Shown one piece after another: positions 26,186 through 48,993 of a stretch of 64,000 bases of DNA; the first letter of the stretch is position 1, and every line of letters starts with the position of its first letter. This DNA comes from Candidatus Iainarchaeum sp. GTDB lineage: Archaea > Iainarchaeota > Iainarchaeia > Iainarchaeales > JAZDDZ01. Location: NCBI GenBank assembly GCA_043809245.1, contig JAZDDZ010000007.1, forward strand, positions 1 to 64,000. Direction: 5' to 3'. Below the pieces are notes generated by a model. The model was given only the letters and a program-made list of their open reading frames with translations. It was not told the origin of the DNA and made no database searches. Both the position numbers and the translations under genes were made by a program.

Positions 26186-28864
26186 TTAAACCCTTATCGC
26201 TTTTCTTCTCGTGAGCTGTTTTATGAGGTAGTTGAGCAATAATAGGAGCACGACTTCAGCCAAGGCAATGATTATTGCAATGGTTGCATTTGAAAGCCTG
26301 TTGACCAAAAGGGGCAATGCGAAGAAGGCGATTGCAATGCTTAAGCGTGAAAGGAGCTCTTTTCTTTTCTCGGAAGTGCTTTTGGCTTTCCTGCGCATCA
26401 TTGAAGCTGACTTGTTGTATGCGAGCACTGCCGCGGCAATGCTTAACGCGAGCAGCAGCAGCAAAAGCAGCGGCGTCTTTAGGATTGCCTCGCCGAAAAT
26501 CGCAAGAATGCCTTTCCCAAGGAAGCCGAACACTGCCTCAACTCCGCCCGAGACCTCTACTTTTGCTTCAAGCGCTTTCACGCCGTTCCTTGAAACGACA
26601 ATCGTGTTCGTTCCCCCGCTTGAAAATTTGAGCAGAATATTTCCCTGCGCACTGGAAGTGAAATTAGAGGAAAGCCCGAAATCAGGGGTAACGGAAATAT
26701 CCGCGTTTGGAACTGTTTTTCCGCTGGCTGTCTTAAGGGTCACGGCTGCCTCATCCCCTGCATTTGCTGTCTGCGGCAATCCCTCCAATACAAACCTTTG
26801 GATGAAGAAGGAGCCCGAGTAGGATTCAAATCCTGTCTTTGAGGCAAAAACCGAGTAGTTGCCTGGCTCGCTTAAAACGAATTCAACAGCGCCCGCGGCA
26901 TCGGATGAAAAGTTAAGTGTTTTTCCCGAGGGAAAGACGGCTTCCACGAACGCCCCTTCAACAGGGTTTCCCCTTGAATCCATTACAATCATCTGCCTTG
27001 AATCCCCGATCAACTCGGTTTCATTGGCGTTCAGCCTGACTTCAAGGTAAGGCATTCTAACAGTGAAAGGCCTTTCAGCAGCGTTGTTTTCTTCGTTTGT
27101 TTCCTGAACAGAGTTATCGGGATCGGCAATTATTTTAAGCGAGTAAACCCCCAATGGCTTGTCTGCCTTGAATGAAAAATCAATGAGCTTTATCTGGTCC
27201 TGGCTTAATGTTCCAATTGTCTTTGCATCCATTTCCTCGTCATCAAGGTTCAGGGCCATTTTAAAGAAAGCGGATTTGCTTAAGCCAACGTTTTTCAGCT
27301 GGACAACAACCGAAACGTCAACTATTTCCCCGACAACCGCATTAGCCGGAGCGTCAACTGACTGGATCATTATGTCAGGCAGGAAAACGCAGTCCTCATC
27401 AACGTAACCGTCTCCATCGTCATCGATTTTGTTGTTGCATATTTCAGGGCAGCCTAAGACGCCCTTTGGAATTAACTTGAACCAACGGTAATGCGTGTTC
27501 TCCGAATCCGCGTTGCCCAGAACATCGGTTGCCGTGACCCTTGAAGAAAGCATTGCGAATTCGCCTTGAAGCGGGCCGAGCATGCCCTTATAGGTTCCAT
27601 CCGCCTGTTTTTGCAGTGGAAGTGAATGGCTGTAATCGTTTTGCGTTAAGCCGTAAAAGAGCGTAACTGATGACACTGCGTTCAATGCATTAATGTCAGC
27701 CAAAACATCGATGAAGAAAGCGGTCTTGTCATCGTTTAGCCTTGCGCTCATTGAGGCGCTTTTAACTGTTATCTGCGCAGGGCCTTGTTCTGGCGGCGGA
27801 ACAGGGGGAGTGTAAGGCAGTATTTGCTGCAGGAACTGGACATTGACAATGCTTCCATCATTGTCCATGAAATTGTAATAGGCATCGGCGTTCGCAGGAA
27901 GCGTTATCCCCAGATTCTGGCCTTTCACTACATTTGTGAATGAATGCTGCTGGTAAGAGCCCCCCACAAGCACAAACACATCCAGTGAGCCGATGCTTGC
28001 GTCGTCATCGTATAGGTCGGAAACGAAAAGCGAGCGGTCTGTTGTGCGCATTGAAACAGTTATTGTTGAAAAGCCAGTGAAATCAAACAGGGCAATGTCT
28101 TTCTGCTCTCGCAGAACCTGCGATTCCGCGGGGGAAAGGCTTGCAGTTGAACCTGAAGCGCATTCTGTGAGGTCAGGAGTCAAAAGGCTGAAATAGTGAG
28201 GCAATAAAAGCACGGTTTCCTTCCTTCCGGTTAAGTCAGTTGCAGTGATTTTTCCGTCAAAAATTATTTCGTTGGTGAACGGGCCGAGGATTTCCTTGTA
28301 GGAGCCGTCAGGCTGCTTTGACATTTCAAATTGCTCGGAGAAATCCCCTTCCGCAAAGCCGAAGAAAAGCACGATGTTGGAGTAAGGGTGCAAGTTGTTT
28401 ACGTCCACGGAAACGTTTACGTAAAAGGAACGCAAGTTGTCGGATACATCGGGTTCAACTGAAAACGAGTAAATCATTTTAGGCGGTGTCTCCGGAGGCG
28501 GGCAGTTAGGGCAGGGCTCTGGAGGCGCCTGATAATCGGTGATGTAACGCATGTATTGAACGTTTTGAACCGTGCCATCGTTGTCCATGAAGTTATAGTA
28601 CGCGCTTTCCCCCGCATTAATTGTTGCGCCTGAAAGGATTTGCCCTTCAATTACTCCTGAGTAGCTGTAGCGCTGCAGCCCTGCTGCCTTTGAAATGAAT
28701 ACATCCGCAAAAGCAATGCTGCCATCGTCGTCAAAAACATCTGATGCCAGGACTGAGCCGTCGGCTTGCTTTACTAAAATCAATTCCGAGTACTCGGCCG
28801 CCGCTGCGATTGAGGAAAGGAAAAGCATTGCGCAAAGCAAAAGCAGGATTTTTTTGCCCATCAT
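26186..28864 (-). CDS. Secreted, membrane-anchored protein with a duplicated N-terminal module, CARDB and Ig-like domains
   Basis: Signal peptide MMGKKILLLLCAML; two YYNFMDNDG modules; EICNNKIDDDGDGYVDEDC; CARDB ADPDNSVQETNEENN; several C-terminal TM helices; ATGA overlap with the giant gene. Confidence 0.85.
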   Translation of the reverse strand: MMGKKILLLLCAMLFLSSIAAAAEYSELILVKQADGSVLASDVFDDDGSIAFADVFISKAAGLQRYSYSGVIEGQILSGATINAGESAYYNFMDNDGTVQNVQYMRYITDYQAPPEPCPNCPPPETPPKMIYSFSVEPDVSDNLRSFYVNVSVDVNNLHPYSNIVLFFGFAEGDFSEQFEMSKQPDGSYKEILGPFTNEIIFDGKITATDLTGRKETVLLLPHYFSLLTPDLTECASGSTASLSPAESQVLREQKDIALFDFTGFSTITVSMRTTDRSLFVSDLYDDDASIGSLDVFVLVGGSYQQHSFTNVVKGQNLGITLPANADAYYNFMDNDGSIVNVQFLQQILPYTPPVPPPEQGPAQITVKSASMSARLNDDKTAFFIDVLADINALNAVSSVTLFYGLTQNDYSHSLPLQKQADGTYKGMLGPLQGEFAMLSSRVTATDVLGNADSENTHYRWFKLIPKGVLGCPEICNNKIDDDGDGYVDEDCVFLPDIMIQSVDAPANAVVGEIVDVSVVVQLKNVGLSKSAFFKMALNLDDEEMDAKTIGTLSQDQIKLIDFSFKADKPLGVYSLKIIADPDNSVQETNEENNAAERPFTVRMPYLEVRLNANETELIGDSRQMIVMDSRGNPVEGAFVEAVFPSGKTLNFSSDAAGAVEFVLSEPGNYSVFASKTGFESYSGSFFIQRFVLEGLPQTANAGDEAAVTLKTASGKTVPNADISVTPDFGLSSNFTSSAQGNILLKFSSGGTNTIVVSRNGVKALEAKVEVSGGVEAVFGFLGKGILAIFGEAILKTPLLLLLLLALSIAAAVLAYNKSASMMRRKAKSTSEKRKELLSRLSIAIAFFALPLLVNRLSNATIAIIIALAEVVLLLLLNYLIKQLTRRKAIRV

Positions 28865-31800
28865 GCCCCGCCCCCAAGGAATTGCTGCCACCAAATCATG
28901 CTCAAATTGTTAATCCTTTCATAATGCATTCTCTTTAAGAACACAGGGTCAAGCCACCATGAAACGCTTGTGCCGTTAATCTGCGAATATGCGGCTGACA
29001 TGTTTTTGTCAATGATTGAGAAGTCATGCGAGCCGAAAGACACTGCGTTCTTTGAAATATTCAAAGTGTAAGGCGCATTTGTGGAAAGGCTTGAGTTAAG
29101 GTAATTGGAGCTGAAGGAATAATCGGGATTGTATTGTGTTTCGCTTATCTCCCTTGAAACCGCAAGGGAGTTTCCCTGCACGCTGAAAGCGTAAGCGCTT
29201 GAATCAGCCAAGGGCTTCCAGAATCCCGCGACAATCTGCTCCTGCTGCAAAAACTTTGCATAGGAGTAAATCAGCTCGGTTCCGGCTTCAACGAAAACAA
29301 GGTGGAATTTGTTGTTGTTAGTTTCATCACTCTCGGCTATAAGGTTTGAGGGGTCAATGAGTATGTTTATGTCATGGGCTCCGGAAATGCTTCCCGAATT
29401 CACGGAGAAGTGCACATTGGCTTTTGCACCTGGCGCAAGAGAGGGCACATTGCCTGATGCAACGGTCTGCTTGTCAAGCAGAACTGAAACCGCGAATGCC
29501 CCTGAATCAGCCTGCGAATTGTTTGCAATCACAGCATTAACATCTATCCTCTGGCCCTGGAAAACCGTTGCGGGAACAGATGAACTTTCAAAGGAAAGGT
29601 CAGTGATCAAAGAGCCTATGTCAACCTCCATTATGTTGTCCTGCTCGTTTGATTCCGTCACGACTTCAGTTGAGTCAACGAAGACGTAAAAAGTGCTTGC
29701 CGTGCCCTCTGACTGGAAAAGCGCTGTTGCCGCTGGCTGCTTTACCGCGCCCGCGGTGTTGATTGTTATCACCTGCGCCACTGGCTCCTCGTAATAGAAG
29801 AGCATGATTACATCCTTGTCTTTTTTCAGTGAGCCGATGAAAGTGACTGCGATTCCCTGTGAAGCCAGGGTGTTCTCGAAGAATGAAACGTAAAAGTTGT
29901 TGGAGTCAAAGTCCTCTGAGCTTATCAGGACATTAAAGTCAACTCTTACAAGGTCTCCTGCAACAAAGACTGGCTTGCCCACGTCAATGCGCTTGAAGAA
30001 GAGGTTTGGAATGCAGCCCTCATCAACCAATCCGTTCAGGTTGTCGTCGAACAGGTTTCCGCACAGCTCAGGGCCTGCGAAGTAAACTGTTGTCGACGCA
30101 TTGTTGTTTGCCTCGTTTGACTCTGCCACGGAGTTGTCAGGGTCAACGACTTCATAGAATGAAATTGTTTTTCCCTGCCATGAAGCCATTGCCGCGTCGT
30201 TTGCGTCGTAAGTGAATTCAAAGAGCAGGCTTGTTCCGTCGCTTCCCGCAAGGCTGTTCACGGTTCTGCTTGCGATTTCCCTTCCTGAAGGGCTTCCTTC
30301 CCTTAACGAAACCCTGAAGCTTGTGGCGGAAGTTGAGCCAAGATTGTATACTGCTGCAGCAAATGAAACCTTTGAATTGTTCTGCGCGATTCCACTGCTT
30401 GTAAGCGTTGCTGTAAGGTCTGCCTGGACTGAAGTGCAGCTTCCGTCGGTGTTGCAGGTGTCCCCTGAATTAGGGCAGCCGCAGTCAGAGCAATCGTTCA
30501 CCAAAGAGCCATTTGAGCAGAACAATGGCTTTGCCGCAGAGCAGGCGTTATATGCCGTGCCATCAGAGCAGGATTGCGCCGGGCAGTCGCCTGCACAATT
30601 TGCGCTTGATTCATATGGCGAGTCGCAAAAGCTATCGCCGCAAACCCAGCAGTCAGCAGGGCAGTTTGCCCTGGTTTCAGATGTGGTGCAGGAACCGTTG
30701 CCGCAGACCTCGCCCCCGGTTGGCCCCCCGCCTGAAGTTACTGTAATGGTAACGCTTTCAGTTGAGCTGTTCTGGTCAAGGTTGTCAGTTGCAATAACTG
30801 AATAGGCGTGTTCTCCCAATTCCTGCAAATCGAATGAATAGGAAGTATTGGTTGAATTGTTTATCCAAGCGCTGCTGTCCACTTTGACCCAATAATTTTT
30901 GATGCCCGCGCCTGAATCAGATCCAGTGTAAACAATTTCAACTGTTGATGAGGACTGCGAGGCGCCGTCGCTTGGGAAAGTGATTGAAAGCGTTGGCGCG
31001 GTTGAATCGTAATAAGTTGAATCGCTTAAAGCGCTTGACCAGTTGCCAGAATCATCTGAAACCTTAACGTAAACAGTTGCCGCCCCGTCAGTTGAACCGC
31101 AGCCGTAAGAGCCGGAGGCAATGTCAAAGTTTGTTACGCTTGAAGTATATGCTTGGTTTAGCCAGGGCCCTGAAGCGGAACAGCTGATGTTCATGTCAGA
31201 GGCATCAGCGCTTGCGACAAGCGTGATTGTGGGAGTTGAATCGCTTGTGCAGCCCTGTGCCTGATTGCATGTGCTGTCTGAAATCGTTGCGGATGCAAGC
31301 GTTGGCGCATTAGTGTCCTCTCCGTAACCCCAGGGCGAGAAGTGGTTCATGTCAGCGGTGATTTTGTTGTTCACGGTGTCAACTGTTGATTGCATTGCAA
31401 TCCAGTCATTGGAGTCAACATCCCAGCGGTAAATCTTGAGCTTCTGCTCGTCAGCGGTTGAGCAGGTTGGGGCGCAGCTTAGTTCGCCTTCGCTGTATGT
31501 GAGTGTGAGCTTTGCGGGCTTGTCGCTCAGGAAAGTAAGCGTTCCTTCGGGTGCGTCAAAGTTGAACGCGGCATACAGCCTTCCCCTCTGGAACGTTGGC
31601 GGAGAGCTGTTGTAGTCAATGCTTATGTTCGTGTCAGCGCCTGAAGCCATTCCGGTTGAGGGAATGAAGAGGTTGTAATCTCCGTAAGATGTGCTTCTCA
31701 CGATTGCCCTTCCGTTTGTGTATGGAACCTGGAAAGGCGATTCCTTGTCGATTGTGCATCTCTTTGTTGTGGAGTTCGCCTTGTTGCCGACGCTGTCGTA

Positions 31801-34800
31801 TGTTTCCACGCGGTAGTACATGAATCCGTCAAGCGAGCCCTGGAATGCGTTAAAGCTTTTTCCGCCTGAAAGCGCAGAGGTGTCATTTGTCGGCACGCAG
31901 CCGTTAATGCATGCATTTCCGACTTCACAGGAACTATTGTCCGTTATGCAGTTCTCGCCTATGTCACAAGTGCCATCTCCGCAGACGTAATTGACTGTGG
32001 TGGTTTGAACGCAGCCGTCAACTCCCGCGCCTCCCTTGCATACCCAGTCAGAACCATAGGCATCATAGCAGTAAGAGTTGTCGTAAATGCAGTACTCGCC
32101 TGTGCTGCAGGTTCCGTTGCCGCATGGGTTTGTGGGGTCATTGATTATCGTGTTCTGGTCAGGCTGGCAGCCGCTTCTGCAGAAGAATCCTGCTGCGCAA
32201 CCATTTAAAGTGTCTGTCGGGCAGTATTCCCCTGGCGAGCATATTCCGTCACCGCAGGAATAATTAGTTGTTGTTCCTGTCTGCGGCCTGCAGCCGCTTG
32301 TGCATGCAGTGCCTATCGGGCAGTTAAGGCTGTCATTTGGGCAGTTTTCGCCGGGATTGCATTTTCCGTCACCGCAGACTCCATTGAGGTCAACTGCAAG
32401 GAAGTTAAAGTCATAAGTGGTTTCACCAGCAGTTGAGGTCTGGTGCAGTTCCTGCCATGCCTGGCCGTTCGGGGAAATGAATATCTTGAAGTATGCAAGT
32501 GAATTGCTGTCTGATGCCCCAGCCCATGCAAGTGAAACATTTTCGCTTTCAATGAAGTCAGGGCAGTCCTCTAACTCTGCCGCGGAATCAATGTTCATGT
32601 CCACATAGATTGTGTCAAAGAAGAAATGCGACAAGTTGTCAAGCGAATCCCTGAATTGGACGTAAACTTCCCTGAAGCCCTGGCCTGCAATGCAACCTCC
32701 AATTGTTGTGTCAAATATGTTGAAGTCAGAGTAAGTTGTTGCGTAATTCACATACTGCGCCCATGTGTAGCTGTCGCAGCTGAAGCGCATGTCCTTGAGG
32801 CCAATGCCTCCGTTGTCTGCCGCGGAAAGCGTTAGGGTTGGAGTGTCATTGTTTGTTGTCTGGCTTCCCCCTTCAATCTGTATTGTGCCGCTTGGAGCTG
32901 CCCTGTCAAGTGTTGTTGTGTCAGAGTAAGAGGAGGAAATGTTTCCGGCTGAGTCCCTGAATTGCACGTAAACTGTCTTTGAGCCGTCTGATGAAGTGCA
33001 GCCCGCTGTTGAATCAATGAGGCTTAAGCCAGAGTAGCGTGAAGAGAAAGCGGCCCAGCCTGTCCAGTTGCTGTTGTCGCAGCTGAAGCGCATGGATTCA
33101 ACGGAACTGGTTGAATCAGTGGCTGAAAGGTTTAAGTCGGGGTTAGTGCTTCTCGTGTAGCCGTTCGTGTCAAGCACAGCAATTGAGCCTGTTGGATTGG
33201 AATTGTCTACTATGAAATAAGTTGTTGCACTGCTGTGATTTGCGGCTGTGTCCTGTGCCTGCGCTTCAACCCAGAAAATCGTGCCGTCTGAATAGGCTGA
33301 AAGGTTTGCTGTTGTGCCAAGGTATTTTGAGGTTGTGGCTGTTGCCGCAAGGCCGCTTGCTGACTGCGTGCTTATAACTGAATTGCCGTCGGAATTGTTT
33401 TTCACCTGCACGTTGGCGTCGTCAAGCAGGAAATGCTGGAAGTAAACATTGTAGTCAATTGAGCCGCTGTAATACCTGTTGTTCGGGTTTGGCACAAGGA
33501 ACTGTATTGTCGGAGCCGCCCTGCTTACCGCAAAGCTGCGCTGTGCTGTTGAGGTGTTGCCTGCCCTGTCAACAGCGTAAACCGAAAGGGCGTAGAGATC
33601 CTCTGCAACAGGGGAATCTGAATTCCAGTCAGCATCCCAGCTTTGCGCGGAGGAGAGATTCACGTCAAATGGATAGCCTGCTGTTGTTCCCTCCGGGCCG
33701 GCAGCGGAGTTAATTGTAAGCCAGGCGCTGCTTATGCCTGAGCCGCTGTCTGAAATTGTGTTGTAAAGGAGCACGTTTCCGCTCACAAACTGGTTTTCCC
33801 CTGGCGCATCAATTGAGACGCTTGGCACAACAGTGTCAACATAGAATGAGTCAGCGCCAATGCCTGAATTGCTTACAACCGAGAAAACCCCTGCCTTGTC
33901 CATTACTTCAACGTAAATTGTCTTGTTTCCGTCCTCTGCAGCGCAGCCGTTGAATCCGCTTTTTACGTCAAAGTCGTTTGTTGAGGAATTGTATGTGTCG
34001 CTTCCGTCAAATGCAAACCAGTCAGTGAAGCCAAAGCCGTTGCAGCTGAACCTTGCCTTGCTCAGGCCTGAGATAGTGTCATCTGCGGTCAGCAGGAACT
34101 CCGGCGTGCTGTCATTTGTGTATCCGCCTAAGCCAGTGAAAACTTCAATTGATATTGAAAGGTTAAGGGGTGCATTCTGGTCCAAAATCCAATAGCCTGT
34201 GTTTGCTTCGCCTGAAACATTGTATGCCCTGTCCCTGAACCTGACGTAAATTATTTTCTGCCCCTGGCCTGTTGTGCAGCCATATTGTTGTGCTGCGGGC
34301 CTTGCGTCAAAGGTTGAGTACCTGTAAGAGTATACAATCCAGGGGTAAGTCCAGTCAGAGTTGTCGCAACTGTACTGCATTTCGTATACGCCTGATGTTG
34401 CATCCGTTGCAGCCATTACAAGCGGTGGCGCATCATCAAAAGTGTAGCCTGATTCTCCTGTCCAACGCTCTATAAAGATTGACGGGTTTTGCGGTGCCTG
34501 AGTGTCAACAATAAGTGAGCGCGCTGCGCTTGCGCTGACATTGTATGCCCTGTCCCTTGCCCTCGCGTAAACAGTTGTGCTTCCGTCAGTTGAACCGCAG
34601 CCGTAAGAGCCTGATTCAAGGTTGAAGTTGGATTTTGTTGAAGCGAAAGCCTCCCAGCCTGTCCAATCGCTTGCATTGCAGGAGAACTGCATTCCGGACA
34701 ATCCGGATAAACCGTCTGTTGCCGATAAAGCCAGTGCCGGGGTTGCAGTGTTAATGTATCCGTCCAGGCCGCTGTAAGTTGTTGAAAGCGCTAAGCTTGT

Positions 34801-40800: not shown

Positions 40801-43800
40801 TAAGTCAACTGCCCATTGCCCCATTTTTCCCGCAACCCAGTGGGAGCCCACATTGGTGTATGTAGAGCCGCTGCTTGCGAATATGAGCCCTAAATTAGTG
40901 CCGACTCCCCCTTTATCGTGGGCTGTGTACCCGCTGCCTTCGTCCAAGGGCCAGTAACCAATAAGGCTTGGGTTTGCAAGAGAATTCAGGTCAAAGTTCT
41001 GCACTAGGGAATTGGAGAACTGCCCTGGAGAAGAGGAATAGTAAATGCTTGCGTGGAGGTTTCCGCTGAAAACATTGAAGTCAGCGTCAGTCACATTGAA
41101 GTCTATGAGGAAATTGCTGTTGTATCTTGCGTTAATTGTTGTGTCCTGCAACAGGACATTGAAGTTTGCGTCGGGCGCAACAGGAGTTCCGATTACAGCG
41201 TGCATTGTATTGGTTGGCTCTGTTTTGCCTAAATTGTCAATGCTGTAAAACTGGATTGCATAATTTCCGTCAGCGCTGAATGCAATTGCCGAATTGTAGT
41301 CAGCCCAGGAACCGTATGACACTGCGTTTGAGGCATCAGAGTCAAGCCTGTATTTTGTGGAAGCGCAGGCTGAATTGTTTTGCGAATAGATTTCCTCGCC
41401 TCCAAGCAAGTATGATGGGGGCGTGGCAATGTCTTTTTTTACGCTTAAATTGTCAAAGGAAGCGGCAACGCTGCCTGAATAAACCTGTGAAAACAAGCCA
41501 AAGTAAGGCGCACTCGCGGATAAAGGCGCTGAATTAAGGGAAACATAGGAGCCTATTTGCGTCCAGTCAGTTCCGTTAAATGAGATAAGGTAAAGGTTAT
41601 AGCCGCCCCTCCGTATAATTCTCAGCCACGCAGGCAGGGTCGTGGAGGCATAGCTTGGCATGCTTCCCACATAACACCCGTCAGGATAGCGCCTTACTAC
41701 TTGGAAATTATCTCCTTCCCCTATAGCTTCCTCCCCACAGTATACGCTCCTACTTGCATACTTATACCTTCCAAAATAGTCTGCAGCTATACCGCTGGTG
41801 CCAACCGATAAATTGCCAACATATATGCCTGTATGCGTGTCATTGTTAACAGTATAGCTGTTCAGCTTTGCAGTCAAAGCCCAGTCACCTGAATTGCCTA
41901 TATTGAAAGCCAGAATCTCATAATCATTAGTGGAGTTAAACAACAGCCTTCCGCTTGTTTCCACAAGTATGTTTGCGTCACTGCCATTATTTGTTCTGAA
42001 ACCCCTTGCTGGAAGCGTTTTAAGGCTGTTGTCGTTGAAGTTGTCCCCTAAGTAAAAAATGTCAGGGTAATTGTTCGGCGGCGACCCAGCGCTTGGGTTT
42101 CCGTAAAAAAGGAAGTAATTGTAGTCAATTGTTCCCGCAGAAATCGTGTTTTGCAGCTTGAATTGGATTACAGTATTTGTTGTATTGCAGCCGATTACTT
42201 CCCTGCTTAACTCTGTTGTGCCGTTATAGGCAACCCTTAAGTCACTGCAGTTGCTTTTCATTTTTCCCGCGGCAATAAGCGCTGCAGTGTCAATTGCGTT
42301 GACGTCAAGGGTATACGTGTTGTTAAGCGTGGTTGCTGACGCGGAATTGTCAATTGTTATGATTTTCCTGTAAGCGTAATCCGAGTCAAGCCAGCCGCGC
42401 GGCGAAGAGCAGAAAAGGCTCGCGCTAAAGCCGCTTGGAATGAAACCGCTGTTTATGTCGCTTGAAGTAACAGGGCCAAGCGCGTTAACAAGGAATGAAA
42501 CCATGCCAGTGCTTGAGGTGTTAAGCAGTGCATCCCTGCACGCATAATAGCGGGTATAATTTCCGTCGGCAAGATTGCCTAAATCGCATGAGAATTGGCT
42601 GGCGCTTCGCGTGCAGGAATTGGGGAGAGAGGCAAATGAAAGGTTTGCTGTTCCCCAGCTGCAGGAAACACTCGCGGCATTAAAGTCAGTTATGTCAAGC
42701 ACAATGCCTGTTGAAGAATCATTGGTTGAATCAAGGTATGGAGCGGTTGAATCTCCGCCAATGTTGTTGATTGCAATAACTGGAGCAGTGTTATCCAATT
42801 CAAAGAATGCATCAGAGGAATCAACTGCGTTATTGTCCTGCGGGTCAAAGGCATTCAGGTCAATGAAGTAATTGCCGTCTGCCACGCCATTGATTGTTTT
42901 CCACAGGTAAACGCATTTTGTTGAATCAGAGAAATCGCGGTCAGCGCACCATGAAATCCTGCTTGCCTCAGCTGCGCTTAAAGCCCTTCTGATGAAGAAG
43001 GGCTCGTCAATCGTGCCGGCAAAGCCCTTGCCAATGTCTATTTCTTCGCTGTTGTTCATGTTTGCAGTGGAATTGTCTGTTCCAGTGCAGGCAAGTGCGC
43101 CGTCAACGTAAAGATAACAACTGTTAGTTGAAACATTCCTAACGCCTATGATGTGGTGCCAGTGGTTGTCGGCAATGCGTGAGCCATAGCATACACAGGA
43201 TAAGCCGTTCCAAAGATTGTTTCCGACAGAAAATGTGGCTAGTCCATAAGGAACGCTAATAGCCCAGCCTGCAATGGGCAAAGCATAATAAGTAGAGTAT
43301 TTGCTGATTAGGTCCCCTGACAAATCAGTTGTTTTGACCCACATTCCAACGCTGAAACTGTCAGCCAATTTAATGTCAAAGTCAGGGTCATCGCCTCTTG
43401 TGGCGTAAGAGTCAGGGCTGTCCGAAAAAGTTATTGCCTTGTCAAAAACCCCTGAAACCCAGCTTACGGAGCCTGAGAGCGCTAGATTATTTGCAGCCGT
43501 GGTGTTTGCGTCGCGCAGTGTTGTTCCACTGCCTTCACCGAACTTCCACCAGGACTGGTAAGTGGCGGGCACAGTAAAAGCATTGGCAAGATTTACATTG
43601 TCAGCAATTTGGTTCTGGAAAGCGCCAGCTGCACTGGAATAATAAATGTCTGCGTATAACACGCTGCTGTCTGAATCCAAAACATTGAAGTCAAGTAAAT
43701 AGTTTCCGTCATTCGGGTAAGAGATTTGCTCTCCGCCATTCGGAAGCGCGAGCACAACTGTTGGAGCTGCACCGCTGTTGTTTATGCGGAAGTTCTGGTC

Positions 43801-46800
43801 AGAGGAATCAACCGCGTTATTGTCCTGAGGGTCAAAAACGTTGATGTCAATGAAGTAATTGCCGTCAGGAAGAGCGGAGTAATTCCAATCGTAAGTGCAT
43901 CGCCTTGAAACCGAAAAATTGGAGCTGGCACACCTTCCCGGAACGGAAAGATTATAGTCGTTAAGTATTTGGTTCTCAAAAGCGCCGGGTGTTGAAGAAT
44001 AATAAATGTCGGCAAACAACTGGTTGCTGTCTGCATCAGATACATTGAAGTCAAGGGTTTTGTTTCCCTGCAGGAAATACGTCCATGTTTGGTTTCCGTT
44101 GGGGGAATTAACCAAAGCGGTTGGCGCAGCGCCTTGTACAGTGAATGAAACCGCGGCAGCGGTTGAAGCATTCAATGCATTATCCCTGCAAGAATAATAA
44201 TAAGTATAAGAGCCGCCAGTCAAGTTTGTGAAATCGCAGGTTACTTGGCTGCCGGAAATCGCGCCGCAGGCATTGGCCATGCTAGCATAGGCAACATTCG
44301 TTGAATCCCATTTGCAGGAAACACCATTTGAATTGAAATCCGAAATTGAAAGCAAAAGATTGGTGTCATTGTCAGAAACACTGTCAAGATAAGGCTCTTC
44401 GGTGTCCCCTGCCAAAGAAACAACCGAAAGTACAGGCGCTGAATTGTCAAGCGAGAAATACGCATCAGAGGAATCAACGCTGTTGTTGTCCTGAGGGTCA
44501 AAAACATTTATATCAAGGAAATAATTGCCGTCGGAAACAGCGATAATGTTCCAATCGTAAGTGCATCTCCTTGAAACCGAGAAATTTGAGCTGGCGCACC
44601 TTCCGACAACAGACAAATTCCAGTCATTCACAATCTGTGTGGTAAAAGCGCCAGCGGAAGAAGAATAATAAATGTCGGCAAACAACTGGTTGCTGTCCGC
44701 GTCTGAAATGTTAAAATCAAGCACCGCATTCTTATCTCTAACATAAGAATTCGTGTCACCGCCATTAGGGGAATTTACCCGAATTGTTGGCGCAGCGCCT
44801 TGTACAGTGAAGGAAATCGCTTCTGCGGTTGAAGCATTCAATGCGTTGTCACTACAGGAATAATAATAATCGTAAGTTCCTGCGGCAACACTTCCGAATG
44901 CGCAAGTTATTTGATTGCCATCAATGGCGGAACAATCATTCGCCATGCTCGCATAGGCGACATTCGTTGAATCCCATTTGCAGGAAACACCCGCAAGATT
45001 GAAATCCGAAACCGAAAGAAGGAGATTGGAGTCGTTGTCAGAAACACTGTCAAGATAAGGCGCCTCAATGTCGCCAGCCAAAGAAACAACGGAAAGAATT
45101 GGCGCATTATTGTCAACAGTGAAAAACGCATCGGATGAATCTGCTGTTGCGGCGTTTGATGGGTCAAACACGTTTATGTCAATGAAGTAATTGCCGTCGC
45201 CCAAAGAAGAAAGCATTGTCCAGCCGTAATTGCAGTCAGTGGAGTCAAGGAAATTGGTGTCAGCGCATTGCCCCAAAGCATTTAGGTTCAAGTCATCAAC
45301 TATCTGCGTGGTGAAAGCGCCTTGGCTGTCTGAATAATAAATGTCAGCGTAAAGCCAGTCGTTGTCAGCGTCCATTACATTGAAGTCAATCGCATAATTG
45401 CCGTCCTTTGCGTAAGAAATTGTTTCACCGCCATTGGGTGCGTTTACGTTTGCATCAGGCGCAGTGTTTGCAACGTTGACTGTGAAGGAAAGCGTGGTGA
45501 TTGCGGAGTTGTTGTCCATTGCGTCGCCGCAGACGTAAAAGCGGTTGTAATCGTTGTTCATCAGGTAGCCGAAATCGCAGGCGTAAAGATTGCTGTTCTT
45601 GGCGCATTCTGTTGGCGAAGCCATTTGGGAATCGGAACTCCACCAGCATTTCACTCCAGCAAGCTCAAAGTCGTTGACGTCAAGGATTGCGTTTGTGTCA
45701 AAGTCCTTGAGTGTGTCCTCCCAAGGCGCGGAAGCGTCATTGGCTAAGCTTGACACGGAAATTGTTGGCGCAAAATTGTGCACCAAAAAGTTGTAATCGC
45801 TTGAATCCGTGGCGGGCGTGTTCTCTCCGTCGGAGACATTCAAGTCAATGAAGAAATTGCCGTCAGGGACAGCGGAAAGATTCCAGTTATACCAGCATTT
45901 TGTTGAGGAAGCAAAGGAATTGTTAGTGCAGGAAATTTTGTACAACTGCATTATTTCATCCGCGGAAAGCGCGCGGCTGAATATGCGGAGGTCGTCTGCT
46001 TTTCCTGTTGAGTAGGCGCCGCCAGTGGGGTCATAGCCTAAATACAGTGCGCCGCTGGAATCGTTGACGTCGCCTGAAGCTGAAGCGGAATTGCATTCCC
46101 CGCCGTTAACGAAAATTTTCCTGTCAGAGCCGTCAAGAGTGCAGGAAACCATATACCATTTGTTTGCGTCAAAGGTTCTCGTGCAGGAAATTGAGTCGCC
46201 GCTGGAAGCGGTTGCAAGATAGCATGTGGCGGAAGTGGTTGTAAGGCTTAAGCCCTTGTCTTCAGCGCCTGAAACCCATTTCCTTAACATCATGCTAGGC
46301 GTAGCCCACATGGAAATCGTCGCACTGGTTCCGAGTGCAAGTGAAGTCGGGCCGCTTGCATACTTGTTTGTTGCTGCCTGCAAGCCCGGGCCGAATTTTC
46401 CTGAAACCCAGCTCATTCCTCCATAAGTTGTTCCATTGCCTCCATTGCCGCTAAGGTCATTCACAGTGCTGCCGTTGTTTTCATCAATTGGCCACCAGAG
46501 CAGAAGCGAGGCGTCGCTTAGGATTCCGAGGTTTGCGTCCAAAAGTTTTGTGCCATATGCTGCTGGAGACATTGAATAGTAAATTGATACATTTAAGTCA
46601 GTTGAATCTGCATCGCTTACGTTGAAGTCAATTGAGATGTTTCCGTCGCGGTTATAGCTGTAGCGCTCGTAGCCAAGGGGCGAGAAAAGTGTTGCGTAAG
46701 TCGGCTGGGTTGACAGAACTTGGAAGGAAATTGAAGCGGTTGCAGAGGTATTAAGGCCAAGGTCTTTGCAGGCATAATAGCGGTCGTAAGCGCCTGAGCT

Positions 46801-48993
46801 TAAGTTTCCGAACGAACAGGTTTTAAGGCCTGTTGAACCAGAGCAATCGTTTGCCATGCTCGCATAAGCCACATTGCTTGAATCCCATTTGCAGGAAACC
46901 CCATTGGCGTTCAAATCGGAAATTGAAAGGGCAAGGTTTGTGTTGGAATCAACTAGAGAATCAGTGTAAGGTGCAGTGCTGTCGCCGTCAAGGTTGTTAA
47001 TTGAAACTACTGGCGCATTGTTGTCAAGCTGGAATAAAGCGTTGGAGGAATCTGTTCCAATGTTCTGCATGCTGTCAAACAGGTTTATGTCAATGAAGTA
47101 ATTGCCGTCGCCTAAGCCCATTAGGTTCCAGTCGTAATAGCATTCTGTTGATGCGGCGAAGCTGGTGTCGCGGCAGCTTGTAAGGTAAAGTGCCTGTATC
47201 TCCGAGGAAGTTAGTGCGGTTTTTGTGAAAAAGGGGTCGTCTATTAAGCCGTTGAAGTGCCCTCCGCAAGTTCCAAGCGAACAAGTTATACAAGCAGGGT
47301 AAGCTCCGATTGCCAATGGTTGAGTGTTATTCATGTTTGCATTGCTGTTATCCGTTCCCTGCCCTTCTAATGCTCCGTCAACGTAAATATAGCATTTGTC
47401 GTCTGCAACGCTTCTTACACCTATTACATTGTGCCATTGGTTGTCGTTTAAATCCGTTGTGCCTGTTGCTTGGCAAAACTTTGTTCCGTCACCCCAATCG
47501 CCAATGTAAACGTTTGCCTTTGCATTTGGGGCCACATTTATTCGGTAACCAATTACTGTGCAAATTGTTTTCGCAATTATTGCTTCCCCGCCCCCTCCAA
47601 GTGTTCGCACTTGTTCTATCGGGTGCTTTATCCACGCTCCCATTGAAAAACTTGTCGTTAAAAGCACGTTAAAGTCTACATCGTCGTTTCTGTATAGGTA
47701 TTGGTTTTGGTCTGGATTAAAGGATATTGCTGAACCATATCTCCCGTTTGCAGTCCAAGTTGGCGCATAGTTTCCTGTGCCGAATGAAAGATTGTTGGCG
47801 CCCGATGTGCTGTCAAGAGTTGTGGTGCCTGAGCCCTCGGAAAAATGCCACAGGCCTTTCAGGAGACCTGAGCCGTAAACTGAAAGGTTTAAGTCGTCTG
47901 CAATTTGCTTTGTGAAGGCGCCTGCAGTTGAAGAATAATATATGTCTGCGTAAATGGAATTGCTGTCTGAATCCGTTACATTGAAGTCGATTGAAATGTT
48001 TTTGTCGCTGTTGTAAGAGAATGACTGGCCTCCATTGGGGTAATTGACCAAAGCGGTTGGCGCGTTGCCTGAAACAGTGAAGTCAACTGAAGCGGTTGAA
48101 GAGGCGTTTGCAACCGCGTCCTGGCAGGCATAGTAAATTGTGTAAGAGCCTTTGAGCCCAGTGGCCTTGCACGATGACTTTCCTCCGGAAATTGCACTGC
48201 AGGAATTCGGAAGCGAAGCGTATGCAACGTTTGTTGTTCCCCACTTGCATGCCGCCGGGCTTCCCACGCCTGCATTTGAGTCGGAAACATTCAGTAGCAC
48301 GTTTGTGCTGCCGTTGTCAATCGTGTCCTCATATGGGCCTGTTGTGTCGCCTTCCACGCTGTTCAAGGAAACCGTTGGCGCGATTAAATCTGTTGTGTAA
48401 TTGCCTGTAATTGGATTGTTTGTTGCTGCAAGCGTGTTGTCGAAAAGGAAAGCAAACCAATTGTGCGTTGCGTTGTCTGATTCTGAAGTGAAGGAACAGG
48501 AGGGGTTTGCGGCGTAACTGCTTTGGCTGACTGAGCAATAGGTGCCTGCGCCGCAGCCGGAAATTGTTGCGCTGTTTGTCTGGCAGACGAATAGCTTCAA
48601 GGGATTGCTTTCGGAATCCGTCGCGCTTGTGCAGATGTAAACAGTTGAGCCGCCCTTTATTGTTGTCGCGGCTGTGCCGCAGCCCGCAACTTTTCCATCG
48701 GAAGCTGAAGTGAATGTCGGAGCGTAAGTGCCGAAGTAAATTATGTCTTCAACTGTCTTGTCGCTTACTTCCGCTTCAACTGCAGGGAATAAAAGGGTTT
48801 CCTGCGCGGCGGAGAGATTGTCCTTGAAAACCGTTGAGTCAAGCTCTTCCTGCGTGAAGGCATTGCGCCAGTCAAGGAAAGAGAAGGCATCGGAGCCTTT
48901 TGAAAAATCACCGAATGCGTTAACAAGAAGGGAAAGGCATACAATGCAGAGAATTAACGCTAAAGCTAACCTGATTCTGCCGCTTTCATTCAT
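28861..48993 (-). CDS. Giant secreted surface/adhesin protein, 6710 aa (Ig-like repeats, 4 LamG-like domains, DUF2341-like domain, Cys-rich repeats, CARDB)
   Basis: Uninterrupted 20.1-kb ORF; signal peptide; W.F.EGSG...IDD/DE LamG patterns; about 21 FSC..W...GC..DG..VY...D..GN repeats; three D..N.(V/I).ESNE.NN-type CARDB motifs. Confidence 0.92.
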   Translation of the reverse strand: MNESGRIRLALALILCIVCLSLLVNAFGDFSKGSDAFSFLDWRNAFTQEELDSTVFKDNLSAAQETLLFPAVEAEVSDKTVEDIIYFGTYAPTFTSASDGKVAGCGTAATTIKGGSTVYICTSATDSESNPLKLFVCQTNSATISGCGAGTYCSVSQSSYAANPSCSFTSESDNATHNWFAFLFDNTLAATNNPITGNYTTDLIAPTVSLNSVEGDTTGPYEDTIDNGSTNVLLNVSDSNAGVGSPAACKWGTTNVAYASLPNSCSAISGGKSSCKATGLKGSYTIYYACQDAVANASSTASVDFTVSGNAPTALVNYPNGGQSFSYNSDKNISIDFNVTDSDSNSIYADIYYSSTAGAFTKQIADDLNLSVYGSGLLKGLWHFSEGSGTTTLDSTSGANNLSFGTGNYAPTWTANGRYGSAISFNPDQNQYLYRNDDVDFNVLLTTSFSMGAWIKHPIEQVRTLGGGGEAIIAKTICTVIGYRINVAPNAKANVYIGDWGDGTKFCQATGTTDLNDNQWHNVIGVRSVADDKCYIYVDGALEGQGTDNSNANMNNTQPLAIGAYPACITCSLGTCGGHFNGLIDDPFFTKTALTSSEIQALYLTSCRDTSFAASTECYYDWNLMGLGDGNYFIDINLFDSMQNIGTDSSNALFQLDNNAPVVSINNLDGDSTAPYTDSLVDSNTNLALSISDLNANGVSCKWDSSNVAYASMANDCSGSTGLKTCSFGNLSSGAYDRYYACKDLGLNTSATASISFQVLSTQPTYATLFSPLGYERYSYNRDGNISIDFNVSDADSTDLNVSIYYSMSPAAYGTKLLDANLGILSDASLLLWWPIDENNGSTVNDLSGNGGNGTTYGGMSWVSGKFGPGLQAATNKYASGPTSLALGTSATISMWATPSMMLRKWVSGAEDKGLSLTTTSATCYLATASSGDSISCTRTFDANKWYMVSCTLDGSDRKIFVNGGECNSASASGDVNDSSGALYLGYDPTGGAYSTGKADDLRIFSRALSADEIMQLYKISCTNNSFASSTKCWYNWNLSAVPDGNFFIDLNVSDGENTPATDSSDYNFLVHNFAPTISVSSLANDASAPWEDTLKDFDTNAILDVNDFELAGVKCWWSSDSQMASPTECAKNSNLYACDFGYLMNNDYNRFYVCGDAMDNNSAITTLSFTVNVANTAPDANVNAPNGGETISYAKDGNYAIDFNVMDADNDWLYADIYYSDSQGAFTTQIVDDLNLNALGQCADTNFLDSTDCNYGWTMLSSLGDGNYFIDINVFDPSNAATADSSDAFFTVDNNAPILSVVSLAGDIEAPYLDSVSDNDSNLLLSVSDFNLAGVSCKWDSTNVAYASMANDCSAIDGNQITCAFGSVAAGTYDYYYSCSDNALNASTAEAISFTVQGAAPTIRVNSPNGGDTNSYVRDKNAVLDFNISDADSNQLFADIYYSSSAGAFTTQIVNDWNLSVVGRCASSNFSVSRRCTYDWNIIAVSDGNYFLDINVFDPQDNNSVDSSDAYFSLDNSAPVLSVVSLAGDTEEPYLDSVSDNDTNLLLSISDFNSNGVSCKWDSTNVAYASMANACGAISGSQVTCDFTNLTGGSYTYYYSCRDNALNASTAAAVSFTVQGAAPTALVNSPNGNQTWTYFLQGNKTLDFNVSDADSNQLFADIYYSSTPGAFENQILNDYNLSVPGRCASSNFSVSRRCTYDWNYSALPDGNYFIDINVFDPQDNNAVDSSDQNFRINNSGAAPTVVLALPNGGEQISYPNDGNYLLDFNVLDSDSSVLYADIYYSSAAGAFQNQIADNVNLANAFTVPATYQSWWKFGEGSGTTLRDANTTAANNLALSGSVSWVSGVFDKAITFSDSPDSYATRGDDPDFDIKLADSFSVGMWVKTTDLSGDLISKYSTYYALPIAGWAISVPYGLATFSVGNNLWNGLSCVCYGSRIADNHWHHIIGVRNVSTNSCYLYVDGALACTGTDNSTANMNNSEEIDIGKGFAGTIDEPFFIRRALSAAEASRISWCADRDFSDSTKCVYLWKTINGVADGNYFIDLNAFDPQDNNAVDSSDAFFELDNTAPVIAINNIGGDSTAPYLDSTNDSSTGIVLDITDFNAASVSCSWGTANLSFASLPNSCTRSASQFSCDLGNLADGNYTRYYACRDALLNTSSTGMVSFLVNALGPVTSSDINSGFIPSGFSASLFCSSPRGWLDSDYAYRKIITIDNSASATTLNNTYTLDVNAIDTAALIAAGKMKSNCSDLRVAYNGTTELSREVIGCNTTNTVIQFKLQNTISAGTIDYNYFLFYGNPSAGSPPNNYPDIFYLGDNFNDNSLKTLPARGFRTNNGSDANILVETSGRLLFNSTNDYEILAFNIGNSGDWALTAKLNSYTVNNDTHTGIYVGNLSVGTSGIAADYFGRYKYASRSVYCGEEAIGEGDNFQVVRRYPDGCYVGSMPSYASTTLPAWLRIIRRGGYNLYLISFNGTDWTQIGSYVSLNSAPLSASAPYFGLFSQVYSGSVAASFDNLSVKKDIATPPSYLLGGEEIYSQNNSACASTKYRLDSDASNAVSYGSWADYNSAIAFSADGNYAIQFYSIDNLGKTEPTNTMHAVIGTPVAPDANFNVLLQDTTINARYNSNFLIDFNVTDADFNVFSGNLHASIYYSSSPGQFSNSLVQNFDLNSLANPSLIGYWPLDEGSGYTAHDKGGVGTNLGLIFASSGSTYTNVGSHWVAGKMGQWAVDLNTIEKLRIANDFTFSTLTNALTLSMWVYPKDSGSAQTWALSDWLGVLTRNSGGTVSYSRSVESTPNYLTTITSTSNFTYNVWNHLSVTCSQENSAISLYVNGYADSSATLPASVPCIYPNYTNTTYFGMRMTNTGTLPNYPGMLSIDEIKLYNRALSKGELLREKLFAFPQPCSDVNFSNQADCGYDWNLSAIATGEYYIDINIFDDQGKSKTISSPAKLIISNFADTTGPTGSILINSGDIGTTSTTLDLSLTYSDDASGVANMSFSCNGTAWTAWESVSSTKSFSILSADNSAVGCDAEASSGYGSKTVYARFQDAEDNNGSSAYDTIFYDDAGAPTGNSVNISTFSGRNGYTNNITPPMSTTSTLAYYMKFSCDNATYSSNASYASAYSAFDVTLIANGCSSSDSNRTVYAIYSDSIGNSASAVQISPANSLYLDRTIPIVSSFTITDSSGYTNDTSPQFDITATDTGSSGLDSMKFSCNGKDWSNWFNYSATLNASTDDFNIGDYNLGCPGYESGLVTVYAKARDKAFNESEIISDTTYYDINPPNASVSIASNAPVLTDANLLLVISAYDDGSGVKDFALSCDNSSYSSWYDYNSYYVDENRAALIDFNALSGAGCSNNDGAIIIYAKARDNLNNTVTVYTTATLDLPIGPSEVDIDIIDNSGYTNNANPQMRIQAGASLDVNAIRFSCDNSTWGAEAVMQSDYNGFNITSGAGCSASEGAKTIYAQFYSPSLGSWAYTASDSTTYDATVPSGSVAINAAAYYVTGYTSDTTPLLNTTASDALSGLHEMSFSCDANNFTGWVVYKSQYFDFNLLDDSQGGCSNTDGNKTVYVKFKDKAGNQILANSSNDTVLTLQGDKTDFGGLIFFDDGDSFVIDTTNPYDVNVELDVAQWSGTLGYTNDDAPPLVVNGKDLIAGLHDMAFSCNGVDFSPKGQYTKYYSNFDVKPNSTQYGCTTRDGQRKVYIRITDRAGNAVVGSADTGVWWLDTENPTLSSVLVDSSMNNTTADSAPAISISAYDLVSGLYDLNMSCGSSGPWRTYSYSSIISDFNILSPVYGCTNGEGGRRVYAVVRDKAYNQSEVQFDDIIFDTSATTTPSVGIDGYAKNSWVRGATVTLTCTATASDVASYDFDYTLSDDGTGWTELATGDTDGSYAWVTPANDLNFAIRCRYKDNAANYSVYDYAYYLGLDKTAPTTTDDIPSGWQTSITVTLTCSDANGPSGCQRTYYKINSGGWVFYSSPFVLNLEGINTVYYYSLDNAGNTESLKSKTASIDAIQPTLNSITISDIGGYTNSSKPAIFVSATGDASYIKFNCNNSSTWQAFSYKISQGSIASFDVSQAGYGCLSGANGSVNVYAKLVDLAGNESAVVSDSTYYDTAAPTGTIIIENGAASTNDSTPLLSLSASDAASGVTEMQFSCNASSWSGWVPYATSYSAFNIYTTSYGCSLSDGLRRIYVRFRDKVGNVGPSASDLILVDLGPPVNNSISVTGFTGTPRYTSSTTPPLAISSNGASYMRFSCSSNPSSFSGNTPYSSSYSSFDIATGAGCSNTDGAKQVYAIFEDDTNNSSAPVSTYANGGYFYLDRSKPALNSLSITKTSGYTSDTTPSATLSASDATSGVHEARFSCNGTSWGAWASYSSSMVPNINLRYGFNGCLNSVDGNVTLYAQLRDKAYNISNEIRSDSVYVDTTGPTATISIEGGAETTSDYTPALSITGNDGTGIGVSQMQFSCNGSTWNAAWVNFSAAYSDFNIINSALGGCTYAAGTKYVFVRLRDTLGNIGEAASDSIILNWTPITGGNSITIIDNFGYTNNATPQMNISTNVSGTTLTHMRFSCDNSAWAAEVPYNTTYSSFNIASGSNGCSTANGSKTVYVQFKDSVGTWGYVASDSTTYDTVPPTGNSIAVNYTGATGYVNTALPTFALSSTGANRVRLSCNGITYTNPAIYSETYNSFNIKPQATAYGCPTSDGNRTVYAIYLDYAGNSAAAVNTASFVLDTAPPTSLALSTTYSGLDGYINTATPALALSATDGLSGLSGMQFSCNASDWTGWEAFASTKSNFNLESGSYGCGSTDGSTTVYARARDRAYNVSASAARSLIVDTQAPQNPSIFIERWTGESGYTFDDAPPLVMAATDATSGVYEMQYSCDNSDWTYPWIVYSYRYSTFDARPAAQQYGCTTGQGQKIIYVRFRDRAYNVSGEANTGYWILDQNAPLNLSISIEVFTGLGGYTNDSTPEFLLTADDTISGLSKARFSCNGFGFTDWFAFDGSDTYNSSTNDFDVKSGFNGCAAEDGNKTIYVEVMDKAGVFSVVSNSGIGADSFYVDTVVPSVSIDAPGENQFVSGNVLLYNTISDSGSGISSAWLTINSAAGPEGTTAGYPFDVNLSSAQSWDADWNSDSPVAEDLYALSVYAVDRAGNTSTAQRSFAVSRAAPTIQFLVPNPNNRYYSGSIDYNVYFQHFLLDDANVQVKNNSDGNSVISTQSASGLAATATTSKYLGTTANLSAYSDGTIFWVEAQAQDTAANHSSATTYFIVDNSNPTGSIAVLDTNGYTRSTNPDLNLSATDSTSSVESMRFSCDNSNWTGWAAFSSRYSGLSLIDSTAGCTSSDGSKTVYVQFRDSAGNISSSYSDTTTLDRAAPSGTIQIEGGSQTTNNDTPTLTLSAADNGGIGLKDMRFSCDSYTWAQYVNYATTYSDFNIFDTTIGGCIAGQGFREVYVQFRDSLDNLSHFFFDTIYVDMNIDSAAELEDCPDFIESENVSLAWAGASDSNSLAYFKIFISPNGQAWQELHQTSTAGETTYDFNFLAVDLNGVCGDGKCNPGENCPNDSLNCPIGTACTSGCRPQTGTTTNYSCGDGICSPGEYCPTDTLNGCAAGFFCRSGCQPDQNTIINDPTNPCGNGTCSTGEYCIYDNSYCYDAYGSDWVCKGGAGVDGCVQTTTVNYVCGDGTCDIGENCITDNSSCEVGNACINGCVPTNDTSALSGGKSFNAFQGSLDGFMYYRVETYDSVGNKANSTTKRCTIDKESPFQVPYTNGRAIVRSTSYGDYNLFIPSTGMASGADTNISIDYNSSPPTFQRGRLYAAFNFDAPEGTLTFLSDKPAKLTLTYSEGELSCAPTCSTADEQKLKIYRWDVDSNDWIAMQSTVDTVNNKITADMNHFSPWGYGEDTNAPTLASATISDSTCNQAQGCTSDSTPTITLVASADASDMNISCSASGPWLNQAYTSSVTNFDIASGSYGCGSTDGAATVYVKVSDDSGNWSSALSDSTYYDSTAPTLSITFPSDGASQSSSTVEIVYTGSDSGAGIKNYWVKVDSSAWINNSTNTSYSFDLQELGEHAYSVIATDNLDQNSSTESVTITVTSGGGPTGGEVCGNGSCTTSETRANCPADCWVCGDSFCDSPYESSANCAGDCPAQSCSDGTAYNACSAAKPLFCSNGSLVNDCSDCGCPNSGDTCNTDGSCTSVQADLTATLTSSGIAQNNSKVSFAAAVYNLGSTSATSFRVSLREGSPSGREIASRTVNSLAGSDGTSLLFEFTYDANDAAMASWQGKTISFYEVVDPDNSVAESNEANNNASTTVYFAGPELCGNLFDDNLNGLVDEGCIPNLFFKRIDVGKPVFVAGDLVRVDFNVLISSEDFDSNNFYVSFFENTLASQGIAVTFIGSLKKDKDVIMLFYYEEPVAQVITINTAGAVKQPAATALFQSEGTASTFYVFVDSTEVVTESNEQDNIMEVDIGSLITDLSFESSSVPATVFQGQRIDVNAVIANNSQADSGAFAVSVLLDKQTVASGNVPSLAPGAKANVHFSVNSGSISGAHDINILIDPSNLIAESDETNNNKFHLVFVEAGTELIYSYAKFLQQEQIVAGFWKPLADSSAYAFSVQGNSLAVSREISETQYNPDYSFSSNYLNSSLSTNAPYTLNISKNAVSFGSHDFSIIDKNMSAAYSQINGTSVSWWLDPVFLKRMHYERINNLSMIWWQQFLGGGA
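43790..45140 (-). repeat. Tandem intragenic duplication, 666-bp (222-aa) period
   Basis: Shared anchors offset by exactly 666 bp: TTCCAATCGTAAGTGCATC (43883/44549), GGTTGAAGCATTCAATGC (44161/44827), GTCAGAAACACTGTCAAGATAAGGC (44371/45037). Confidence 0.9.

Follow-up and report, generated by a model that had tools for sequence, protein, structure and literature searches.

Bacterial MAIN proteins, with YfkN of Bacillus subtilis as their prototype, are large proteins that run from a signal peptide through adhesion domains to a GAIN-like domain with HFS before its last strand. The bacterial MAIN domains, including that of B. subtilis, have been reported to be cut between F and S of HFS with the halves staying together, the proteins typically carry, beside the domain, a C-terminal sortase, wall-binding or SLH anchor, and MAIN domains have been reported in archaea as well (bioRxiv 10.64898/2026.05.12.724683; here and below, published systems are described from the accessible parts of the sources cited). 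Related cleavage sites are HL|T/S in GAIN domains, the halves of which remain bound (PMC11697300, PMC3321182), and HF/S in PIDD and Nup98 (PMC3210808). We describe here a domain of the MAIN type, a type which is itself already known, in the 6,710-amino-acid (aa) product of a giant gene that lies on a 64,000-nucleotide stretch of DNA from Candidatus Iainarchaeum sp. (the window; assembly GCA_043809245.1, contig JAZDDZ010000007.1, positions 1 to 64,000) beside the gene for a putative membrane partner. The splitting of the gene at the HF|S position, found in a derived lineage of Iainarchaeota, is new here. The features central to the comparison are:

28861..48993, minus strand: giant gene, 6,710 aa (open reading frame (ORF) call and orthologue check)
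31312..31752, minus strand: ZU5/GAIN-like (MAIN-type) domain, 147 residues, aa 5748-5894 (AlphaFold2, structural comparison, Foldseek)
31336..31344, minus strand: H5884-F5885-S5886, with the predicted scissile bond F/S at 31339 to 31338 (GAIN/FIIND register, split relatives)
28864..29286, minus strand: conserved C-terminal domain, aa 6570-6710, 141 residues (alignments, model, presence in 15 of 215 genomes)
26186..28864, minus strand: partner gene, 892 aa, the ATG of which overlaps the TGA of the giant gene (ATGA)

Compared by description, the giant protein shares with the MAIN proteins its size and the order of its parts, and it appears to work like a MAIN-type releasable adhesin but lacks their in-chain anchor: 825 residues follow the domain, none of them forming an anchor, and a protein with three transmembrane helices is encoded by a separate gene. 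The GAIN/GPS region of adhesion G-protein-coupled receptors (GPCRs) and the ZU5 domains of PIDD, NLRP1/CARD8 and Nup98 resemble the giant in fold (Z 8-11.7), in the H-x-S turn before the last strand and in the N-terminal lectin/immunoglobulin (Ig) ectodomain (PMC3321182, PMC3210808, PMC11697300). In contrast to these, the giant is prokaryotic, has no seven-transmembrane or signalling domain and no GAIN-A helical subdomain, and its strand after the cut runs into further Ig and CARDB modules; the multi-pass membrane domain right after GAIN that marks adhesion GPCR/PKD1-like proteins was not found. Bacterial polymorphic toxins and surface proteins with a ZU5 autopeptidase have been proposed to be cleaved at the base of the filament (Zhang et al. 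2012; PMC3482391), whereas the giant is archaeal, no RHS, SpvB or toxin domain was detected in it, and no RHS or toxin family scored above cut-off in its C-terminal part. SPEARE of the Nanohaloarchaeota (SVXNc_0300, 9,409 aa), also from a DPANN archaeon, likewise has a Sec signal and a very long Ig/FN3 ectodomain but is membrane-anchored with a cytoplasmic VirB4-like ATPase (PMC10266531); the giant has neither a transmembrane segment nor a VirB4/TraG-like ATPase, and it differs further in its LamG inserts, its two-Cys repeats and its MAIN domain. The long beads-on-a-string Ig stalk is shared with SiiE of Salmonella, which was the top Foldseek match, and with the giants of Omnitrophota (bioRxiv 10.1101/2023.11.21.568195). 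Unlike these, the giant has a Sec-type signal and disulfide-rich modules, and the hydrolase, peptidase and transferase domains of the Omnitrophota giants were not detected in it.

The AlphaFold2 model of the MAIN-type domain together with the two-Cys repeat that follows it (D21) had a mean predicted local distance difference test score (pLDDT) of 94.6. Its top structural match was ankyrin ZU5 (Z 11.7, root-mean-square deviation 2.7, 124-129 residues aligned); the GAIN domains of CD97 and BAI3 matched at Z 9.1, and GAIN domains overall at Z 8-9. A ZU5 cluster in the Atlas, at 0.84, is a lead only. The turn that precedes the last strand holds H5884-F-S5886 (strands at model residues 130-135 and 140-146), and alignments with the GAIN/FIIND chains 6v55, 8hc0, 5kvm, 7qu8 and 7crv stop at model residue 138, which is F5885; these five chains terminate where they are cleaved. 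Every one of the 11 distinct intact members of the family has H-[F/L]-S; among the best 150 library matches 127 carry H-x-[S/T/C] and 23 do not, with a profile that itself favours the motif. By analogy with the assayed bacterial MAIN domains, it is quite likely that the MAIN-type domain cuts its own chain at HF|S (5885/5886). In five other genomes, MAIN domains that are less close occur in smaller proteins unrelated to the giant. Distant MAIN-like domains with HFT, HFS or HLT were seen in Iainarchaeota surface proteins at L074, L075, L076, L077 and L079, including one subtilase fusion (G114); here and below, G000 is the genome of the window, other G-numbers are genomes compared, P-numbers library proteins and L-numbers loci. 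A search of metagenome contigs with the MAIN alignment gave one locus, which was taken as that of G016 itself and counted once.

The G043 gene breaks off at ...DLNRIG, in the place of ...DMNHF in intact members. Two in-frame stops and a GAGGT motif resembling a ribosome site follow, and then a new ORF in the same frame, P0121 (372 aa), in which a signal peptide and the missing strand come first, followed by an Ig module, Cys-rich repeats and, at the end, the conserved last domain. P0126 ends at NRI too, and P0272 and P0273 start, as does P0121, with a signal peptide and the missing strand. In the G-x-G-x-D register, the equivalent of the Ser is residue 30 in P0121, 26 in P0272 and 20 in P0273; signal-peptidase sites placed by eye would put the mature ends within a span from 4 residues ahead of this Ser to 1 behind it, and that of P0272 (a close relative of P0121) exactly at it. 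In a tree built without the motif columns, two split domains grouped with the intact P0131 and P0132 (support 95/97), and monophyly of the 11 intact forms was rejected (approximately unbiased test, p 0.029, on a tree of 20 rows from which three long-branch outgroup rows were omitted). Since the split forms nest among intact ones, the split looks derived. A literature search gave no description of a naturally split MAIN or GAIN domain. The main text of the MAIN preprint, as far as it was accessible, mentions neither a two-gene split nor DPANN or Iainarchaeota, and its supplementary tables may list such proteins (10.64898/2026.05.12.724683).

The giant protein shows no anchor of its own: no transmembrane segment was found after residue 40 (maximum 19-residue hydropathy 1.46), and no anchor family in Pfam or NCBIfam matched its last 141 aa. 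The model of the C-terminal domain (pLDDT 95) is a beta-sandwich with two terminal helices that bear the conserved WWxDPxFLxRMHYxRI; in fold searches with the last domain, the matches were taken up by the CARDB part. Among 215 genomes of the phylum, 15 were found to encode this domain, as part of proteins of 292 to 6,710 aa, and in 12 of the 15 the partner gene lies directly downstream. The partner protein consists of a signal peptide, two novel repeats, a CARDB domain, two CarboxypepD_reg-like domains and three C-terminal transmembrane helices with an IxV end. Strong matches to it (E<1e-100) were found in 18 of the 215 genomes, including 14 of the 15 with the C-terminal domain, and matches at E<=1e-15 in 46, most of the weaker ones being to the membrane end. 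In G022, a partner-type end with three transmembrane helices is fused to a 2,150-aa LamG/PKD/CARDB protein. This agrees with a general anchor module, which here would act in trans, and the coupling of the genes makes it fairly probable that the partner holds the giant on the cell.

A protein search with the partner alignment scored 7,992 candidates, none of which reached E<=1e-20, the N-terminal half of the partner had no match in the Atlas (best 0.78), and a search of genome contigs with the C-terminal 521 aa gave just seven weak loci at the level of CARDB. A fourth match within the genome of the window ('Ct3', C43) was discarded, as the Ig columns of the alignment had produced it. G031, G019 (C1), G053 and G059, in which the two-Cys repeats occur in other proteins without the last domain, were excluded from the family. 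In two of these, proteins of 3,200-4,200 aa (L045 in G031 and L047 in G019) have 14-17 of the same two-Cys repeats and a different end, and each precedes a membrane-anchored protein of ~650-680 aa, which may represent a second cassette for anchoring in trans. At L103:5345-6508 (G055), a 388-aa protein is encoded directly upstream of a partner gene, and its end resembles the conserved last helix by eye, without a profile score.

An earlier note, made from the letters of the window, had described the giant gene as a large investment for a probably small genome. The minus-strand frame has an ATG start, 6,710 codons and zero internal stops; it makes up 1.36% of a 1.48-Mb genome (assembly 91.8% complete), in which the second-longest open frame encodes 2,782 aa. 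G045, which belongs to another family of the same order, has an orthologous frame of 5,969 aa that ends at a contig edge and is colinear with the giant (53% identity over 4,563 columns). For 21 of the 21 two-Cys repeats the best match in G045 is the positional counterpart, the aligned part retains 99 of 100 Cys, and a different codon is used at 1,253 of 2,433 identical residues. The ORF is real, and since a genome from another family aligns colinearly with the repeats in register, an assembly artefact is unlikely. Other giants were found in G016 (5,464 aa, in a single-contig genome), G130 (4,814 aa) and G138 (6,320 aa) and among the library proteins (P0131, 5,073 aa; P0132, 5,169 aa). GAPDH, GPI and PGK genes lie beside the giant locus in G000 and also in the fetched regions of G045, G016, G051, G003, G027, G130 and G138, and this common neighbourhood indicates vertical inheritance. 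The best named matches of the neighbouring PGK mostly bear the label 'Candidatus Diapherotrites', as do two proteins of the family, in line with Iainarchaeota (DPANN).

The remaining features of the giant protein, from its N-terminus to the segment behind the MAIN domain, are:

48916..48993, minus strand: predicted cleavable Sec signal peptide, aa 1-26, ending V-N-A (sequence, hydropathy)
48385..48729, minus strand: six-Cys module X1, aa 89-203, also in G016, G036, G138 and others
42481..48387, minus strand: alternating Ig-like modules A (four-Cys, 6 copies) and B (two-Cys, 6 of 7 copies), aa 203-2171 (self-BLAST)
47179..47877, minus strand: LamG 1, within module B1 at model positions ~65/66 (Pfam PF13385, E 2.9e-17)
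45931..46518, minus strand: LamG 2, within B2 (PF13385, E 6e-21)
42952..43578, minus strand: LamG 3, within B6 (PF13385, E 1.3e-13)
41428..42396, minus strand: two-domain insert, aa 2200-2522, inside an OmpL47-type module (split module halves)
40294..40980, minus strand: LamG 4, within B7 (PF13385, E 1.3e-16)
32596..40122, minus strand: stalk of 20 two-Cys FN3-like repeats, D1-D20, broken by four other Ig-like modules (repeat alignment, D21 fold, the OmpL47-type NF047446)
31879..32388, minus strand: four CGDG-type Cys-rich repeats, 24 Cys (self-BLAST, alignments)
29284..31314, minus strand: segment behind the MAIN domain, with D21, an Ig module, a 16-Cys region, three CARDB domains and a MopE-like CGN..DDN..G..DEGC motif

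The signal peptide is the sole hydrophobic segment of the protein, which contains 162 Cys (2.4%) and 154 N-x-S/T sequons and is rich in Ser, Ala, Thr, Asn, Gly and Asp. Together with two-Cys repeats that model as FN3-like, this bears out the proposal of a secreted, disulfide-rich filament of many Ig modules, and the giant is very probably a surface filament. The lectin-like domains had been placed in the N-terminal 45%; four LamG_3 (PF13385) matches scored above cut-off, the last ending at aa ~2900, or 43% of the chain. Three of the seven B modules are plain and the other four are interrupted by LamG_3 between ~65 and 66 of the 119-position B profile. As the LamG domains all lie inside one loop of an Ig module, these lectin-like domains would branch off the backbone. 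The insert at aa 2200-2522 had zero Pfam or PDB matches in the copy of the giant, while the G045 copy matched GH43_C2 at E 1.8e-4, below cut-off; the second of its two domains is probably ConA-like, judging from these sequence data. DUF2341, a first guess for aa 2200-2305, was dropped after a Pfam search without a match. Weak Pfam matches to Toxin_R_bind_N, a relative of LamG, and to CNF1 (E 0.017) were taken as fold-level or chance matches, an NCBIfam match to TafC (E 3e-10, far below cut-off) reflects the LamG domain alone, and PDB sequence searches gave no significant match.

Where about 21 two-Cys Ig-like repeats had been estimated, there are exactly 21, both Cys being invariant: 20 lie in the stalk (aa 2958-5466) and one, D21, behind the MAIN domain (aa 5894-5997), where its AlphaFold2 model is an FN3-like Ig sandwich (Z 8.5). 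Cys-rich repeats are found at aa 5536-5705 and 6092-6190; those of the CGDG type probably sit inside an FN3-like module, as a weak match to split module halves suggests. Of the three CARDB-like domains (aa 6190-6570), two scored above the Pfam cut-off and the middle one weakly (E 0.022), and the motif behind them is called MopE-like by resemblance to PF11617, which matched homologues only. The Cys-rich and CARDB part was probably rightly called a base, but no anchor lies there. The earlier note, while correct in outline, had overlooked that a MAIN domain with HF|S is present, that the C-terminal domain is conserved, that a membrane-protein gene is coupled to the giant and that LamG sits inside Ig loops. 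An Ig-like module spans 3.5-4.2 nm, and the 47 backbone sandwich modules counted would give a stretched length of roughly 165-197 nm, within the 100-200 nm expected before.

Taken together, these parts suggest the following course of events. The giant would be exported through Sec and lose its signal peptide, and its modules would fold singly, with one or two disulfides each, and be N-glycosylated; an AglB/STT3 gene and two DsbA-like genes are present in the genome. The MAIN/ZU5 domain would then cleave itself, with its last strand staying in the sheet as in the assayed bacterial MAIN domains, so that a distal piece of 5,859 residues would be held non-covalently on a basal piece of 825 residues. 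The conserved last domain would dock on the partner with its three transmembrane helices, to judge from the gene coupling only. By analogy, the LamG/ConA branches, 100-200 nm out, would bind glycans on cells or surfaces, and a pulling force would release the distal piece. LamG/ConA domains are a feature of lectin-type adhesins, and the giant has four PF13385 matches above cut-off; adhesion is, on this analogy, probably its purpose. Some Diapherotrites may live independently (PMC6349945), and contact with a host is therefore one option only. For the chain as a whole, an exported glycan-binding tether of ~47 modules that cuts itself at HF|S and is anchored in trans by its partner, the balance tips slightly in favour.

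Several observations weigh against parts of this reading. Pfam ZU5 (PF00791) had no sequence match to aa 5748-5894, nor was there any other significant Pfam match. Ankyrin ZU5 domains are not known to cleave themselves, and because they are the best matches, the fold alone is no proof of cleavage. The MAIN domain of the family of the giant is dispensable, as it was found in just 7 of the 15 genomes that have the C-terminal domain. Even for bacteria, the accessible text of the preprint speaks of cleavage in 'nearly all', not all, assayed MAIN domains and of halves that were parted by sodium dodecyl sulfate and heat only (bioRxiv 10.64898/2026.05.12.724683). The two halves of the split form lie side by side at one DNA locus only, that of G043, where the upstream gene is truncated by the contig start. 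The same genome has only a divergent partner homologue, two genes away; G034 and G019 have the partner at a place apart from the gene with the C-terminal domain, and in G027 that gene is frameshifted inside the last domain (L053, G027:C63 ~2845-3238), through assembly error or decay. VKOR was not found in the 91.8%-complete genome. Nevertheless, an uncleaved giant adhesin in which the ZU5-like domain is a mere structural spacer seems unlikely. Such a spacer would agree with the ankyrin/UNC5 ZU5 domains as best structural matches, with the 8 of 15 family genomes that have no MAIN match and with the 23 of 150 library relatives that lack H-x-S/T/C, but H-[F/L]-S stands in every one of the 11 intact members, the lineage without the motif has its gene broken at that very position, and bacterial MAIN domains of the HFS type do cleave (bioRxiv 10.64898/2026.05.12.724683).

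That the length of the giant is an artefact of assembly, with repeats collapsed or duplicated, is scarcely credible: although the assembly is of a short-read type, in 55 contigs and with no long read across the gene, the two-Cys repeats are merely 30-48% identical to the reference repeat, the G045 orthologue has the same 21 in the same order, and giants of 4,814-6,320 aa occur in four more genomes, one of them single-contig. The last domain could instead anchor the protein by itself, by placing its amphipathic, Trp-rich helices in membrane or S-layer or by self-oligomerisation, with the downstream membrane protein having another job. The terminal helices show conserved WW pairs and a moderate amphipathicity (moment 0.39-0.62), and the partner is non-adjacent in 3 of 15 genomes; the overlap of stop and start, an adjacency in 12 of 15 genomes that spans cargoes of 570 to 6,710 aa, and a strong partner match in 14 of 15 make self-anchoring improbable. 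As for purpose, the giant could form a protective or spacing coat (a brush resembling halomucin or a glycocalyx, or a decoy that is shed against viruses and predators) rather than a tether. The 154 sequons, the acidic and Ser/Thr-rich composition, the location of the locus within a glycosylation island and distal parts that vary widely among relatives (570-6,710 aa) would all suit a coat, and a release joint fits shedding equally well. However, the distal half displays four LamG domains, LamG surface proteins of DPANN archaea have been proposed to serve host recognition (PMC10266531), and the stalk, unlike mucin, is an ordered array in which each single repeat is conserved; a coat, while deserving some weight, is therefore unlikely, and a tether is preferred.

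Among the other genes of the window, a radical SAM/FabH/FabG/MaoC module and a 538-aa membrane gene lie upstream of the giant (50785-55876), and their homologues lie directly upstream of the G138 giant too (L099). Two multi-transmembrane proteins without Pfam matches flank the cassette (49137-50753, minus strand; 21959-23422, plus strand); by eye they resemble GT-C glycosyltransferases, and they are candidates for modifying the giant. Similar-looking genes of ~510 aa lie near the cassette in G103 and G104. At 10860-17223 on the plus strand, the catalytic subunits A (1,091 aa) and B (1,028 aa) of an A/V-type ATPase both bear inteins, that of B with a LAGLIDADG domain. Elsewhere in G000, five paralogous-looking ORFs of 2,240-2,782 aa (C3 3008-36188, where four are in tandem, and C8 16452-23171) share the N-terminal motif …YY.LEDKYY..LD…, and about eight Cys-rich secreted proteins of 840-1,070 aa on C20, C37, C44, C16, C54 and C49 start with 'MKKALLLALLL…IIFQD.F'.

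Neither the family of the giant nor its partner was found described in a literature search, and no surface tether of Iainarchaeota turned up. A more general scheme can be put forward tentatively, at somewhat less than even confidence, in which Iainarchaeota display surface proteins in two non-covalent stages: the docking domain would clip interchangeable cargoes of 570-6,710 aa onto an anchor with three transmembrane helices, the MAIN joint would act farther out as a mechanical fuse, and one lineage would have exchanged self-cleavage for two exported genes, with the MAIN domain assembling in trans by strand donation. If this is true, selection keeps a breakable joint and not the cut, and a natural split GAIN-like tag/catcher pair is available. 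The natural split bears on the debate over GAIN and MAIN domains, namely whether their fragments pair in trans and whether a non-covalent joint is the function. Anchorless cargo with a separate anchor would be an undescribed mode of display for very large archaeal surface proteins. The locus is a concrete candidate, with parts that are small and expressible, for the means by which DPANN archaea attach themselves to cells or surfaces and detach again.

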